A DNA stretch of 64,000 nt from Myxococcota bacterium (lineage in GTDB: Bacteria > Myxococcota_A > UBA9160 > UBA4427), in assembly GCA_965250285.1 (NCBI GenBank), contig OZ252299.1, positions 4,480,001 to 4,544,000 of the forward strand, in the 5' to 3' direction. The notes beneath the pieces were generated by a model. That model was not told where the DNA came from. It made no database searches and was given only the letters and a program-made list of their open reading frames with translations. Each line of letters opens with the position of its first letter. Position 1 is the stretch's first letter. The position numbers and the translations under genes are program-made. This document shows positions 22,938 to 28,888 of this stretch, piece by piece.

Positions 22938-23834
22938 GAGCACTCTCCCAAGTGCGGGGACACCAGCCCCGCCATGCTCGACCGCAGGGGCGGGGGCCGT
23001 GCTGCTCGCGGAGTGAATCCGTGGACGGCCTCGAGGAAGAGCGAAACGCCGTCGAAGATATCACGCACGCTCTCGCCAGGACGCGGATCGTCGACGGGTT
23101 CGACCGATCTCCCCGGCGTGGTACCGGCGATTCGACGAGGCCCAGGGCCGGCCCACCGACACGCCGTGGATCGAACATCGAAGAGATGCCGATGGGGGCC
23201 ATCTTCGACCGAGGCGTGAAGATCGCGATACAGGTGGCATCGCTGCCAGCTCTCCTTCGGCTCGCGCGAGCTCCCCATCTCCCCGTATGAAGCGAAGACA
23301 CGGGGCGTGCGGGATGAGGCGCACTCGTCCAGGTTCGTCGGCGGTGCGAGCCGTCCCGTCGCAACGTCGGCTCGTCCGCCGGTCTCTGACTCGGCGCGCC
23401 GACCCCCCCGAGCGCGCGAGGGGCCCGCACGTCGACGATCTCCGCGGCGAATCACGCGCGCCTCCGATGGCTCGGGGAACGAGCGAAACACCTGGGCACC
23501 GTCGGCGCATCCGAAGGCGACGGCCTGCTGAGGGGCATGGAGCAACGGTGGCCTGCGAGTCAAACGAACGATGACGCGAATGAGAGGCGCGTGATGAGCA
23601 ACGGCGGAGCGCCACGACGACCGCGGCTCGACGCGGTGCCAGTGGACCCAGCGATCCCACGTCAATAGCGCCGGCCGGCTCGGTCGAGTTCCCCTCTGTC
23701 CGAAGAAAATCGACCGGGCCGATCTCACGGTTCGACACAGGGAGTGGGCCTGCGCACCTCATCCGACAGTGCGAGACTTCGGCGGGCTGTCACCCCGGGA
23801 CGCCGCGACGAGAATGAATGGACACGAGGTAGAC

Positions 23835-24272
23835 ATGAAGGACATCAAGGGCGTCTTCCGCAACCTCGAAAAGAAGCTGATGCAGTCGAGCTGGTTCGAT
23901 GACGACTGGGAGATCTACAACCGCGGCCCCTACCTGCAGCTCTACAAGGTGAACTGGCACAACGACAACCAGGGCGGCGTGCACTTCGAAACCTACATCG
24001 AGGCGCCGCAGATCAAGCAGAAGGAGTTCCCGATCTGCATGCATGCCGAAGAGGATTGTCCGTCGCAGCCCGAGTTCATCGAGACGTTCCTGGCCCTGGA
24101 GGGCGAGCGGATCGCGGGCTGGAAGGGGTATCAGACGATCGGCACGGGCTACAGCATCTGTGAGCGACGGCTCCCTCTGAACTTCAAGAACCTCGAGGGC
24201 CGGCTGGTCGAAGAGTTCAATCGCCTTCGGCAGCTCGAAGCCGGCATCGATCAGGTTCTGGGTCGACTCTAG
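23835..24272 (+). CDS. Hypothetical protein
   Basis: GAGGT RBS and strong coding bias. No motif recognised. Confidence 0.75.
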   Translation: MKDIKGVFRNLEKKLMQSSWFDDDWEIYNRGPYLQLYKVNWHNDNQGGVHFETYIEAPQIKQKEFPICMHAEEDCPSQPEFIETFLALEGERIAGWKGYQTIGTGYSICERRLPLNFKNLEGRLVEEFNRLRQLEAGIDQVLGRL

Positions 24273-24319
24273 GTTCGGCGACCGCAGATCACCAAACGCC
24301 TTCGCTTCGGAGCAGGACC

Positions 24320-24508
24320 ATGAGCCGCGACAAGAATCCGTGCATCGACGTGTGCGAATTCTCTGGCCCGAAGGGGTGGTGTCTGGGGTGCGGGCGGACC
24401 CGAGAAGAAGCCCAGAAGTGGAAGTCGCTCAAGCCCTATGCGAGGAACATCCTGCTGAAGGAGCTCGAGAAGCGGCGGTCTCGCCTTCAGGCGCAGCAGT
24501 CCCGGTGA
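24320..24508 (+). CDS. DUF1289 family small Cys-rich protein
   Basis: NPCIDVC...WCLGCGRT.EE...W. Confidence 0.85.
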   Translation: MSRDKNPCIDVCEFSGPKGWCLGCGRTREEAQKWKSLKPYARNILLKELEKRRSRLQAQQSR

Positions 24509-24596
24509 ACGCCCGGCTCGCCCGCTGGCGGCAGAAGCGACACCATCCAGCCATGCCCCCGACTCGACCGCCCTCTCATCGCGCAGGCGGCGGGCC

Positions 24597-26588
24597 TCAC
24601 TTCGCTGCAGCCGAACCGATCGGCGTGCGATCGCCTTCGATCTGGCCGAGGAACTCGTCGAGGCCGAGCTCGCCGAGCTGTTCACCCTCACCCGAGCGGA
24701 CGTTGATCGTGCGGGCCGCGGTTTCCTTCTCGCCCACCACGAGGGCGTACGGGATCTTCTGCAGGCTCGCCTCGCGGATCTTGTAGCCGACCCGATCGTC
24801 TCGAACGTTGACCTCGACCCGCAGGCCGGCGTCGAGCAGCTGCTCTTCGACCTCGCGCGCGTAGTCGTTGAAGCGCTCGCTCACGGGCAGCACCACCACT
24901 TGGACCGGCGCAAGCCACAGCGGGAACCGACCCGCGAAGTGCTCGATCAGGATGCCGAGAAACCGTTCGACGCTGCCGTAGCAGGCCCGGTGGATCATCA
25001 CCGGCACGTGCTTGTCGCCGTCGGCGCCGACGTAGCTCAGGCCGAACCGTTCCGGCATCGAGAAGTCGAGCTGGATGGTGCCGCACTGCCACGAGCGCTT
25101 GAGGACGTCGCGAATGTGAAAGTCGATCTTCGGGCCATAGAAGGCGCCATCACCGGCGTTGAGCTCGTAGTCCATGCCCGCGGCGTCGAGCGCCTCGCGC
25201 AGGGCATCCTCGGCCTGGTCCCAGATCTCATCGCTGCCGACGCGCTTCTCGGGCCGGGTCGAGAGCTCGACGCGTACGTCGTCGAGACCGAAGTAGCCGT
25301 ACACCTCCTGAAAGAACGCGATCAGCATGCCGATCTCGCCGGCGATCTGTTCGGGCGTACAGAAGTGATGGGCGTCGTCCTGGGTGAAGGCCTGCACGCG
25401 GAAGAGCCCATGACGAACCCCCGAGAGCTCGCGCCGGTGCACGAGCCCCATCTCCTGAAAACGCAGCGGGAACTCGTTGTGGCTGTGGTTCCGGTGCTTG
25501 TAGACCAGAACGTGTCCCGGGCAGTTCATGGGCTTCACCGCCATGGGGCGGTGCTCTTCGACGTTGTCGTGGATCTCGTCGGGATGCGCCTCATCGCGCA
25601 GCTTCAGCTTCGTGAAGAACATGTTCTCGAGGTAGTTGTCGTAGTGCCCCGACACGTGCCAGAGCCGTTCCGAGAGCACGAGCGGCGTCTTGAGCTCTTC
25701 GTACCCCCGGCGCGAGAGCAGACCGCGCATCGTATCCACGAGCGTCGTGAACAGCGTGGTGCCCTTCGGGTGGAAGAACGGGAAGCCCGGCGCCTCCTCC
25801 TCGAAGTGGAAGAGATCGAGCTGCTCGCCCAGCACCCGATGATCGCGCTTGCGCGCCTCCTCGAGCAGATGCAGGTGCTCCTTCAGGTCGTCCTTGCTGA
25901 AGAAGGCCGTGCCGTAGACCCGCACGAGCTGCTCGTTCTCGGCGTCGGCGCGCCAGTACGCACCCGAGACGCTCGTCAGCTTCACGTGCTTGAGCCATCC
26001 GGTGTGGGGGACGTGTGGGCCGCGGCAGAGGTCGACGAACTCGCCATGCCGGTAGAGCGTGATCTCCTCGCCCCGGGCCTCGATGTCGCCGACGATCTCG
26101 GCCTTGAATCGGTTGTGCCCTCCATCGATGGCGCGATAGCGCGCGAACGACTCGTCGGCCTCCTTGTCGCGCACCACACATCGCTCGAACGGCAGCGCCT
26201 GCTTGGCGAGGCTCGCCATCTCGGCCTCGATGGCGGCAAAGTCATCGGGGTGGATCGCGCCGTCGGGCAGATAGATGTCGTAGTAGAAGCCGTCTTCGAC
26301 CACGGGGCCGATGGTGAGCTGGGCCTCGGGATGGAGACGCAGGATCGCGTCGGCCATCAGATGGGCGGCCGAGTGCCGCAAGACCTCGAGGGCCTCGGGA
26401 TCCTTGCGGGTCAACAGCGCGACCTCTGCACCGTCGACCAGGGGCTGGGCGAGATCCTGAACCCGACCCTCCACCCGGGCCGCGACGGCGGCCTTGGCGA
26501 GTCCGGGCCCGATTTCGCGGGCGAGATCTGCAGCGCTGGCGCCGTCCGGCAGGACGCGCGCGCTGCCGTCGGGCAGCGTGACTTCCAT
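24597..26588 (-). CDS. thrS: Threonine--tRNA ligase
   Basis: TGS domain, editing motifs RHSAAH and DLCRGPH, RDHR, KPMNCPGH, FTQDDAH, GAFYGPKID, MIHRA, anticodon-binding domain. Confidence 0.98.
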   Translation of the reverse strand: MEVTLPDGSARVLPDGASAADLAREIGPGLAKAAVAARVEGRVQDLAQPLVDGAEVALLTRKDPEALEVLRHSAAHLMADAILRLHPEAQLTIGPVVEDGFYYDIYLPDGAIHPDDFAAIEAEMASLAKQALPFERCVVRDKEADESFARYRAIDGGHNRFKAEIVGDIEARGEEITLYRHGEFVDLCRGPHVPHTGWLKHVKLTSVSGAYWRADAENEQLVRVYGTAFFSKDDLKEHLHLLEEARKRDHRVLGEQLDLFHFEEEAPGFPFFHPKGTTLFTTLVDTMRGLLSRRGYEELKTPLVLSERLWHVSGHYDNYLENMFFTKLKLRDEAHPDEIHDNVEEHRPMAVKPMNCPGHVLVYKHRNHSHNEFPLRFQEMGLVHRRELSGVRHGLFRVQAFTQDDAHHFCTPEQIAGEIGMLIAFFQEVYGYFGLDDVRVELSTRPEKRVGSDEIWDQAEDALREALDAAGMDYELNAGDGAFYGPKIDFHIRDVLKRSWQCGTIQLDFSMPERFGLSYVGADGDKHVPVMIHRACYGSVERFLGILIEHFAGRFPLWLAPVQVVVLPVSERFNDYAREVEEQLLDAGLRVEVNVRDDRVGYKIREASLQKIPYALVVGEKETAARTINVRSGEGEQLGELGLDEFLGQIEGDRTPIGSAAAK

Positions 26589-26607
26589 CGGTTCGTCTCC
26601 CTGTCTT

Positions 26608-26663
26608 GCGGGACGGCTACGATCCGCCCTCGCGCGGCATCCGACGGCTACGACCCGCCGAAT
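26608..26663 (-). promoter_or_regulatory. thrS leader: two tRNA-Thr(CGU) anticodon stem-loop mimics (putative translational operator)
   Basis: mRNA hairpins AUUCGGCGG-GUCGUAG-CCGUCGGAU (26663-26639) and GCGAGGGCGG-AUCGUAG-CCGUCCCGC (26633-26608), then SD AGGGAG 26602-26597 and AUG 26588. Confidence 0.75.
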
Positions 26664-26690
26664 CCCTCGAAGACCGGAGCGTGGCTCATC

Positions 26691-27521
26691 ATGATCCTCA
26701 AGCAAGCCCGTCGACCCGACGTGAGCCTCAAGAGCGCCGCCGAGCTGGAGGGCATGGCCGCCGCGGGCCGACTCGCGGCGCGGTGCCTCTCCTGGATCGT
26801 CCGCCAGGTGGGCCCGGGGATGACGACGAACGAGATCGACGACCTGCAAGTGCAGTTCGCACGAGAGCATGGCGTGACGGCCGCCCCCCTGAACTACCGC
26901 GGGTTTCCGAAGAGCATCTGCACATCCGTGAATGAGGTGGTCTGCCACGGCATTCCCAGCGACCGAAAGCTCGTCGAGGGGGACATCATCGGCGTGGATG
27001 TCACGCTGATCGTCGAGGGCTACCACGGCGACACGGCCACCACGATCCCAGTGGGGGCCGTGGCACCCGAGGTGGCGCGGCTGCTCGAGCGGACGCTCGA
27101 GTGCCAGCGGCGTGGCATCGACGCCGCTCGGCCGGGCGCCCGCATCGGGGACATCGGGGCCGCGATTCAGTCCACCGTCGAGCCCGCGGGCTTCTCCGTC
27201 GTACGAGACTTCGTGGGCCACGGCATCGGGCGGGGCTTCCACGAGCCGCCTGAGATCCCCCACTATGGCCAGGCGGGCAAGGGCCGCCGCCTGCTCGCGG
27301 GCATGACCTTCACCGTCGAGCCGATGATCAATGCCGGCAGCTGGGCGACCGAGGTGCTCGACGACGATTGGACGGCGGTCACCGCCGACGGATCGCTCTC
27401 GGCGCAGTACGAGCACACCATCGCGGTCACCGACGACGGCTACCGCGTACTTACGGTGCAGAACGACACCGGTGCATGGGAGCCACCCGGCCGCTGGAGC
27501 CCATCGGGCTGGATCGACTGA
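26691..27521 (+). CDS. map: Methionine aminopeptidase type I
   Basis: FPKSICTSVNEVVCHGIP, DIIGVDVT..YHGDT, GHGIG..FHE, EPMIN, SAQYEHT. Confidence 0.96.
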   Translation: MILKQARRPDVSLKSAAELEGMAAAGRLAARCLSWIVRQVGPGMTTNEIDDLQVQFAREHGVTAAPLNYRGFPKSICTSVNEVVCHGIPSDRKLVEGDIIGVDVTLIVEGYHGDTATTIPVGAVAPEVARLLERTLECQRRGIDAARPGARIGDIGAAIQSTVEPAGFSVVRDFVGHGIGRGFHEPPEIPHYGQAGKGRRLLAGMTFTVEPMINAGSWATEVLDDDWTAVTADGSLSAQYEHTIAVTDDGYRVLTVQNDTGAWEPPGRWSPSGWID

Positions 27522-27748
27522 GCGCACCGACCGGTTGGCGTGCCTGCGCATGGTGCTGATGGCGCTCGCGGATCGGACGCTCGCGCAGTGGACGCCTCGA
27601 ACGGGGCGAACCAGACTCTCACCGAGATCCGACCCCGCCCGGGCGGCGTCGAATCGAAGGGGGACCCGACCGGGTCCAGTCCGTCGACCGCACGGACCGA
27701 GATGAAGAGGGAGACGGCGCGCGTTCCGAGGAACACGCCTTCGACGCC

Positions 27749-28888
27749 ATGTCTGCAGGATCTCGAAGCACATCCACATCGCCCGGTTCGCGATCGATCG
27801 ACGGCATCCTGCCGGCGCAGGGCATTCGGCAGCTCATCGATGAGGGCGCGGTCGGGCTGAGCGCCCCCATGAGCGATCGGCAGCTTCAGCCAGCCAGCCT
27901 CGACCTGCGTCTCGGCAGGAAGGCCTACCGATTGCGAGCCAGCTTCTTGCCGGGCCCGGGCCGCCCCGTCGAAGACCGGATCAAGCAGCTCGCCCTGCAT
28001 GACATCGACCTCGCCGAAGGAGCCGTTCTCGAGACGGGCTGCGTATACCTCGTGCCGCTCCTCGAGTCTCTCGATCTGCCAGGCGACACCTCTGCTGCGA
28101 CGAACCCGAAGAGCTCGACCGGACGCCTCGACGTCTTCACCCGCGTGATCGCAAGCGGCGCCAACGCATTCGATCAGATCCCAGCGGGCTATCGGGGCCC
28201 ACTCTTTGCCGAGATCTGCCCCCAGACCTTCCCGATCGTCGTGCGTACGGGTTCGACGCTGAGCCAGATTCGATTTCGCGTCGGCTCGCCGGCCGAGACG
28301 GACGAAGGCCTGCGCAGCCTCCATGCCAGCGATGTGCTGGTCTCCGGAGCGACGCCGGCCGACATCCAGGATGGCATCGCCCTCTCGGTCGACCTGTCCC
28401 CGACGCTGGCTGAAGACTCGGGAGGGCTCGTCGGCTACCGCGCCAAACGAAACACCGGCCTGGTCGACGTCGACGCACCGTCCTCGTGCGCCATCGCGGA
28501 CTACTGGGAACCGATCCAGCTGGATGCCTCCCAGAGCTTCGTGCTCGATCCCGACCAGTTCTACATCCTCGCTTCGAAAGAGGCCGTCCACGTCCCACCC
28601 ACGCATGCGGCAGAGATGGTGCCGTTCAACCCGCTCGTCGGAGAGTTTCGAGTGCACTACGCCGGATTCATGGATCCAGGCTTCGGTCACGCTCCGGCCG
28701 GCGGCGGCGGGGCGCGCGTCGTGCTGGAAGTTCGTAGCCACAAGGTGCCCTTCATCCTCGAAGACGGGCAGATCGTCGGTCGGTTGATCTACGAGCGCAT
28801 GGCTTCGACGCCCGAACGACTCTACGGAAGCGACCTCGGCAGCCACTACCAGGCCCAGGGCCTCAAGCTGTCGAAGCACTTCGTCTGA
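27749..28888 (+). CDS. dcd: 2'-deoxycytidine 5'-triphosphate deaminase, long two-domain type
   Basis: QPASLDLRLG, NPKSSTGRLDVFTR, GEFRVHYAGFMDPGFG, YQAQGLKLSKHF. Confidence 0.9.
   Translation: MSAGSRSTSTSPGSRSIDGILPAQGIRQLIDEGAVGLSAPMSDRQLQPASLDLRLGRKAYRLRASFLPGPGRPVEDRIKQLALHDIDLAEGAVLETGCVYLVPLLESLDLPGDTSAATNPKSSTGRLDVFTRVIASGANAFDQIPAGYRGPLFAEICPQTFPIVVRTGSTLSQIRFRVGSPAETDEGLRSLHASDVLVSGATPADIQDGIALSVDLSPTLAEDSGGLVGYRAKRNTGLVDVDAPSSCAIADYWEPIQLDASQSFVLDPDQFYILASKEAVHVPPTHAAEMVPFNPLVGEFRVHYAGFMDPGFGHAPAGGGGARVVLEVRSHKVPFILEDGQIVGRLIYERMASTPERLYGSDLGSHYQAQGLKLSKHFV

Follow-up and report, generated by a model that had tools for sequence, protein, structure and literature searches.

Paired GU-loop hairpins in the leader of a second myxococcotal thrS gene: a probable threonyl-tRNA synthetase operator shared by one clade of the enzyme

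The threonyl-tRNA synthetase (ThrRS) of Escherichia coli binds two hairpins in the leader of its own gene, thrS; exclusion of the 30S subunit needs the N-terminal domain of the enzyme, tRNA competes for binding, and a Thr-to-Met switch is described, according to the available parts of four sources (PMC11088916, PMC3858243, PMC9976931, PMC7373986). The same portions of these reviews present E. coli thrS as the only gene for which autorepression of a bacterial synthetase by tRNA mimicry has been shown. Our literature search, with subscription journals outside its coverage, found no such operator outside E. coli and no thrS attenuation in myxobacteria; the available main text of PMC11109978, apart from its supplements, which may bear on novelty, contains no thrS or synthetase motif.

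Does an operator of this kind exist outside Gammaproteobacteria? The question is raised by a 64,000-nucleotide stretch of a Myxococcota genome (the window), in which a reading made from the sequence alone had proposed that two mimics of the tRNA-Thr(CGU) anticodon arm precede thrS and serve in autoregulation. That sequence-only reading had overlooked that the window thrS is a second, xenologous copy, the native thrS of the host having no such leader.

Two hairpins between thrS and map

The host genome holds two intact thrS genes, the window copy being 45% identical to the native one. The features of the two loci are as follows.

24597 to 26588, minus strand: second (xenologous) thrS, 663 aa, with N-terminal TGS and editing domains (TIGR00418, 662 bits)
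26597 to 26602, minus strand: Shine-Dalgarno AGGGAG of thrS, from sequence, at -14 to -9
26608 to 26633, minus strand: hairpin 2 (proximal), 6 bp, a bulged A and 3 bp; fold z -2.8; conserved in the clade
26639 to 26663, minus strand: hairpin 1 (distal), 9-bp stem; fold z -2.6; conserved and covarying in the clade
26691 to 27521, plus strand: map, type I methionine aminopeptidase (TIGR00500), the divergent neighbour, outside the element
C1:1636905-1639659, strand not given: native thrS in a tRNA-Val–thrS–infC operon, intact, encoding a 646-aa ThrRS (copy at C1:1637183)

The start codon of thrS is the ATG at 26588 on the minus strand, and that of map the ATG at 26691 on the plus strand; the spacer between the two is 102 bp long and, as previously claimed, contains a 17-bp direct repeat at 26612 and 26643, with 16 of 17 positions identical. 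Comparable repeats, 20 to 45 bp apart, occur about 0.006 times per 102 bp in the host genome (338 genome-wide). On the thrS strand each repeat copy is the core of one hairpin, and refolding returned both of the stems of about 9 bp with 7-nt loops, (G/A)UCGUAG, that had been read from the sequence. The loop of hairpin 1, GUCGUAG, occupies 26654-26648, with the G35 equivalent at 26651 (-63) and the U36 equivalent at 26650; that of hairpin 2, AUCGUAG, occupies 26623-26617, with the G35 equivalent at 26620 (-32). Both loops hold a CGU anticodon-like triplet. The loop of the host tRNA-Thr(CGU) is CUCGUAA, from which the mimics differ at positions 32 and 38, and the stem sequence of the window hairpins matches none of the three tRNA-Thr stems of the host genome. 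A GC-rich linker of 5 nt separates the hairpins, giving a GU-to-GU spacing of 31, and the minimum free energy structure of the leader holds both at once. Hairpin 2 ends at -20, and the 5-nt gap to AGGGAG described earlier was confirmed (-20 to -14).

In sequencing run X1, possibly the source sample and so not independent, one contig spanned 24000-28000 with zero differences; in related-strain contigs from run X4 a change at 26627 converts a G.U pair of hairpin 2 to A-U. An Rfam scan of 26300-27000, a search that the sequence-only reading had suggested, gave no family for the element and a single chance SAM-IV match (E 3.8) inside map. The window ThrRS keeps its catalytic, zinc, editing and anticodon-reading residues and its N-terminal domain, and infC is absent directly after its gene. 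Around the locus, we also observed that the window map is itself a second copy (the other, at C1:1213652, is 46% identical) and that an ORF of 167 aa at 23769-24272 (plus strand), with no NCBIfam match, converges with the region 3' of thrS.

Twin GU hairpins are conserved in one ThrRS clade

Loci were collected from genome contigs (best 80 of 557), from metagenomes by way of a clade-specific protein segment (best 80 of 120) and from whole-genome searches. A protein identity of at least 60% defined the clade, which comprised 115 loci, 105 of them with a leader and 80 of those non-redundant; setting aside five leaders of an attenuator subclade left 75 for analysis. Carriers were Myxococcota, Planctomycetota and metagenomes, the titled records being mostly Myxococcota/Polyangia and Planctomycetota.

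An automated detector with no stem-sequence rule looked for a GU-loop hairpin at -45 to -22 and a second one 25-115 nt further upstream. GU-loop hairpins proved conserved in relatives, as would be expected of the proposed operator: the proximal hairpin was detected in 69 of the 75 clade leaders and the twin in 65, the ten misses being mostly displaced or imperfect hairpins on inspection. With the same detector, random genome windows gave 112/1500 proximal and 21/1500 (1.4%) twin hairpins, other thrS leaders 8/85 and 2/85, and the gammaproteobacterial branch 9/38 and 4/38; no GU hairpin was found in the five attenuator-subclade leaders. Curated sets of 74 hairpins 1 and 73 hairpins 2 had been picked on GU, which makes the invariance of GU within them circular, and the fair test is a count on stems picked blind to the loop: GU stood at loop places -4/-3, two bases before the 3' arm, in 121 of 149, against a genome-wide background for this register of 1599/27546 (5.8%).

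The clade consensus runs GRYGG, two to four free bases, GU, two further bases and CCRYC. Loop length is 6, 7 or 8 nt, with 6-nt loops in 35/74 hairpins 1 and 23/73 hairpins 2. Within the 7-nt loops, U33 occurs in 16/38 and 21/45 (hairpins 1 and 2, respectively) and C34 in 20/38 and 25/45; positions 32-34 are variable, while A predominates at 37 and U or G at 38. A detector that demanded U or C at position 33 missed many clade members. The described geometry of a tRNA-Thr(CGU) arm therefore stands in one part, the fixed GU in anticodon register, but not in the others, since U33, C34 and the 7-nt loop vary across the clade. All four letters occur at the base preceding GU, as expected if G35 and U36 alone are read, and the fixed GU agrees with the available part of PMC7373986, which names G and U as identity elements of the E. 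coli operator.

Position is conserved as well. The proximal G lies at -24 to -40 in 69 of 73 curated leaders, and an SD-like word usually starts 9-17 nt past the hairpin-2 loop. The two hairpins are 28-35 nt apart in 64 of 72 leaders (modal spacing 29-33) and up to 112 nt apart in others, and inserts between the hairpins or before the SD are predicted to fold into closed stems of their own. In a few leaders (L053, L201/L202, L218 and L195) the hairpin-1 stem is wholly different, with reversed C-G closing pairs or an A/U-rich sequence, and the GU register is kept; to judge by these sequences, this suggests local re-invention of the hairpin.

These counts bear on the idea that the window repeat arose by duplication, by chance or neutrally, in GC-rich DNA, or that map uses the plus-strand words TACGAT/TACGAC as -10 boxes. 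The host genome (a single contig) is indeed 69% GC, folding of the whole 121-nt region is unremarkable (z -0.34), and the plus strand of loop 2 does read TACGAT; against this, the hairpins are conserved in 65 to 69 of 75 leaders, with covariation, and most loops have complements that do not resemble a -10 box. With map adjoining clade thrS at 2 of 115 loci, it is excluded as a general cause of the hairpins. We regard this explanation as extremely improbable.

Stems of hairpin 1 covary

MAFFT alignment of mixed 6- and 7-nt hairpins misaligned the 5' arms, and the 7-nt (38 rows) and 6-nt (35 rows) sets were counted apart, the single 8-nt loop being left out; the pair counts cover hairpin 1 only. 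In these sets, 85% and 90% of cells were paired, and 51 and 50 changes, respectively, were two-sided. Covariation scores of 0.43 and 0.48, compared with 0.18 and 0.19 for shuffled sets, were reached by 0 of 500 shuffles, and all slid registers scored lower, in agreement with the earlier suggestion of selection on structure. On one measure, how many pairs show a two-sided change, the 6-nt set did not exceed its shuffles (188/500). Kinship of sequences inflates shuffle tests, and changes were therefore counted on the protein tree, on which pair 3 of hairpin 1 showed seven changes per side and eight joint changes. Across stems G.U outnumbers A.C by 48 to 21, with an A.C mismatch at pair 4 in 6/74 hairpins 1 and 9/73 hairpins 2. 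In predicted folds the inner pairs exceed a probability of 0.5 in 64 and 58 of 72 leaders. Mimicry by itself would not require the stem sequence to be as conserved as it is.

A covariance model of 29 positions was weak: it found window hairpin 1, a training sequence, and missed window hairpin 2, and across 17 loci it recovered one of four held-out clade loci together with two off-target matches, so that its silence on Gammaproteobacteria is no evidence.

A predicted promoter just upstream of hairpin 1

Counted upstream from the hairpin-1 G in 74 clade leaders, -10-like TAnnnT hexamers are most frequent at 23-29 nt and TTG words at 45-56 nt; from these clade-wide peaks we place the predicted transcription start just 5' of hairpin 1. 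The window has two candidate elements.

26678 to 26683, minus strand: candidate -10 CACGCT, from a scan, a weak match
26700 to 26705, minus strand: candidate -35 TTGCTT, inside the first map codons, from a scan and the clade TTG peak

The resulting arrangement, TTGCTT-16-CACGCT at 26705-26678, recurs as TTGCTT-16-CACnCT in L031; it would start the thrS transcript near 26671 and give a leader of about 83 nt. A strict sigma-70 consensus scan of 24300-27800 returned no promoter, the window candidate falling below threshold, so the case for a promoter rests on the positional peaks across the clade. The candidate promoter (26676-26705) shares sequence with the divergent map gene, overlapping its SD and its first codons.

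An alternative reading is at the DNA level, in which the repeats are palindromic sites (GRYGG-N6-8-CCRYC), about three helical turns apart, for a transcriptional repressor acting just downstream of the thrS promoter. The modal spacing of 29-33 bp, the beginning of hairpin 1 near the predicted start and the presence at pair 4 of all four R/Y combinations, A.C included, would suit such a repressor. Hard to reconcile with it are a spacer of 6, 7 or 8 nt with an asymmetric GU fixed to the 3' arm, a spacing of anywhere between 28 and 112 nt with hairpin 2 kept by the SD, outer pairs that covary with free sequence, and the excess of G.U over A.C. Moreover, no neighbouring gene family is common to more than 8 of the 75 loci, which leaves the supposed repressor without a co-inherited neighbour, and the strict twin motif occurs once in the 6.2-Mb host genome. 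We consider a DNA-binding repressor highly unlikely.

A probable ThrRS operator

We favor, with a probability of roughly 0.8, the interpretation that the twin hairpins are an operator for translational autorepression by ThrRS, working like that of E. coli. Free dimeric ThrRS would use its two anticodon-binding domains to bind both GU loops on its own mRNA, and the bound enzyme would block ribosome loading at the adjacent Shine-Dalgarno; tRNA-Thr would compete ThrRS off the leader and so relieve repression. What comes from the sequences themselves is the twin covarying stems, the GU fixed two bases before the 3' stem, the nearness of hairpin 2 to the SD and the co-travel of the element with one ThrRS clade without infC. 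That ThrRS binds, that it does so as a symmetric complex with both loops, that its N-terminal domain keeps out the 30S subunit and that tRNA lifts the block are carried over from E. coli and stay conditional here. As for the proposal of a tRNA-mimicry operator outside Gammaproteobacteria, its core agrees with the twin covarying GU hairpins found before the SD and downstream of a probable promoter, but the full CGU arm was overstated.

The hairpins might instead be bound, by ThrRS or by another factor, as RNA elements acting on mRNA stability, processing, termination or translation activation rather than on ribosome blocking. Hairpin 1 would cap the 5' end of the transcript, and a yeast ThrRS on an anticodon-like element has been read as activating, in the part of PMC9956033 available. 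Four leaders of the planctomycete branch (L054, L170, L199 and L211) bear most directly on this alternative: both of their hairpins lie 100-270 nt from the start codon, and terminator-like U-run hairpins occur in leaders of this branch downstream of the twin. Two features count against it, namely that 69 of 75 leaders have hairpin 2 right next to the SD, at the offset seen in E. coli, and that scanning the window leader revealed no terminator-like site. Overall we judge it unlikely, and a role of this kind is possible mainly in the long planctomycete leaders. The inserts between hairpin 2 and the SD in these four leaders are long and structured or repeat-like, three of them containing the terminator-like hairpin with its U-run; they are predicted to be closed by a basal helix that reunites hairpin 2 with the SD.

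Likely transfer of the clade gene and a related subclade with predicted attenuators

Repression by ThrRS, if correct, would concern a gene with a history of its own. The window ThrRS clade is separate from other ThrRS, with an insertion near residue 150, a long branch and an SH-aLRT of 100, and the native thrS groups with thrS of same-order genomes; the native leader, in the host and in its relatives, has no such twin hairpins. Members at an identity of at least 72% were present in 7 of 301 genomes sampled from the phylum of the host, the host included. In 27 of 27 other clade genomes searched, of which the completeness is not given, the clade gene is the sole thrS above the family cut-off, two of these genomes holding an extra fragment. 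No clade thrS is followed by infC (0/61), as opposed to 81 of 120 other thrS loci. In four of five carrier genomes (L250-L254) tRNA-Val and infC are about 200-410 nt apart, tRNA-Val first, and no thrS lies between them, the fifth locus ending too early; we infer that this pattern may be the scar of xenologous displacement. The window thrS was likely acquired by horizontal transfer, on sequence grounds. GC3 is 0.88 in both copies, so composition gives no date for the transfer. From the genomes compared, a self-regulating thrS would have spread through transfer and ousted native thrS from its place in the tRNA-Val–thrS–infC operon, and the host would represent a stage at which both copies persist.

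In the clade proteins the equivalents of R583, E600 and R609 are kept in 74/75, 72/75 and 73/75, respectively; in E. coli ThrRS numbering these are anticodon-reading residues. At the K577 equivalent the native ThrRS has Thr, and 75 of 75 clade proteins have Arg. Genomes with two full thrS genes were rare in our sample.

The subclade of ThrRS most closely related to the hairpin clade, at 61-67% identity and with Nannocystaceae among its titles, is sister to that clade in two trees and nested within it in a third (SH-aLRT 90). Leaders of this subclade were noted at L255-L271, L043 and L049-L052, and one family search gave 17 loci. About 130-250 nt upstream of thrS, 14 of the 17 have a U-tailed hairpin and 13 have a short ORF ending in a Thr run, for example MRASTRTATTTTSTA; of the rest, two carry Thr-rich ORFs of a weaker kind and two are ambiguous. 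Twin GU hairpins were found in none of the 17 leaders, which are predicted to be Thr leader-peptide attenuators.

Significance

A wider picture, to which we give slightly less than even odds, would tie these observations together. A second, independently evolved anticodon-mimic operator would have made thrS a portable, self-dosing cassette that spread across Myxococcota, Planctomycetota and others, evicting native thrS, with the host caught holding both; ThrRS would read a minimal GU-NN-stem code, defined by the 6-, 7- and 8-nt loops; and in one branch of the enzyme protein-sensing mimicry and ribosome-sensing attenuation would have been exchanged for each other.

The 75 different leaders form a natural family for testing what ThrRS minimally reads, given loops of 6-8 nt in which GU alone is fixed. 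The family also makes testable a possible repeated origin of such operators, as well as the benefit that an essential translation gene may draw from built-in dosage control in surviving transfer and ousting the resident copy. Set side by side, the attenuator subclade and the hairpin clade show two regulatory logics on a single enzyme family, as a matched pair.

Comparison with known systems

The nearest known system is the E. coli thrS operator. Both leaders have two stem-loops with GU, two bases and then the stem, one of them just 5' of the SD; the E. coli leader (L111) has the loop UUCGUGU with its G at -32, and the window proximal G is also at -32. E. coli ThrRS is likewise full length with its N-terminal domain, and the window enzyme aligns with it from residue 3. 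Stem pairs 3-5 are Y-R, R-Y (often G.U) and G-C both in the clade and in the Gammaproteobacteria-class leaders that have the hairpin. The differences are in the closing pairs (G-C/G-C in the clade, U.G/C-G in Gammaproteobacteria), in clade loops of 6-8 nt with free positions 32-34, unlike anticodon geometry, and in arrangement: the clade hairpins are near-copies, usually 31 nt apart, whereas the second GU hairpin of E. coli lies at -95, 63 nt away, as placed by the detector. The window leader lacks the long A/U-rich single-stranded linker of E. coli (domain 3, bipartite ribosome site), and clade thrS stands alone with no infC behind it. The clade element is best kept apart from strict E. coli-type members: the long linker is absent, and ThrRS binding and common descent are putative.

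Within Gammaproteobacteria the proximal 7-nt GU hairpin is patchy. It was present in 7 of 30 leaders (L070, L224, L229, L239, L241, L243 and E. coli) of a set made up of 28 class loci picked as best family matches, L070 and E. coli; compact twins, 31-33 nt apart, occur in L070 and L243. A tree of 26 rows chosen from 203 that forced the window ThrRS clade together with Gammaproteobacteria was rejected (p-AU 0.0041), so the gene was not taken from that class. Independent evolution of the operator, raised earlier as a possibility, gains from this rejection but not from stem pairs 3-5, which share the gammaproteobacterial pattern and allow for ancient common descent or a protein constraint common to both. 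On balance we lean towards an operator that arose independently of the gammaproteobacterial one.

Attenuators of the thrL/pheM type, with a Thr-run leader peptide and a U-tailed hairpin, resemble the related subclade and not the window, where we found no leader ORF and no terminator and where about 83 nt leave no room for an attenuator. Attenuation of thrS has reportedly been predicted by bioinformatics in some delta-proteobacteria. Yeast offers a likeness of another kind, in that HisRS on HTS1, ThrRS on RPC10 and AspRS bind anticodon-like mRNA elements, according to the available parts of PMC6542539 and PMC9956033; unlike the window hairpins, these mimics are eukaryotic, often lie in coding regions and involve no SD occlusion.

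The T-box of Firmicutes shares with the window the control of a threonyl-tRNA synthetase gene from its leader, and the two thrS genes of the host recall thrS/thrZ of B. subtilis (PMC3997798, in the part available). Unlike a T-box, the window leader is about 83 nt long, has no terminator and gave no T-box match in Rfam. The logic would also be reversed: T-box RNA binds tRNA, whereas the window RNA would imitate it.
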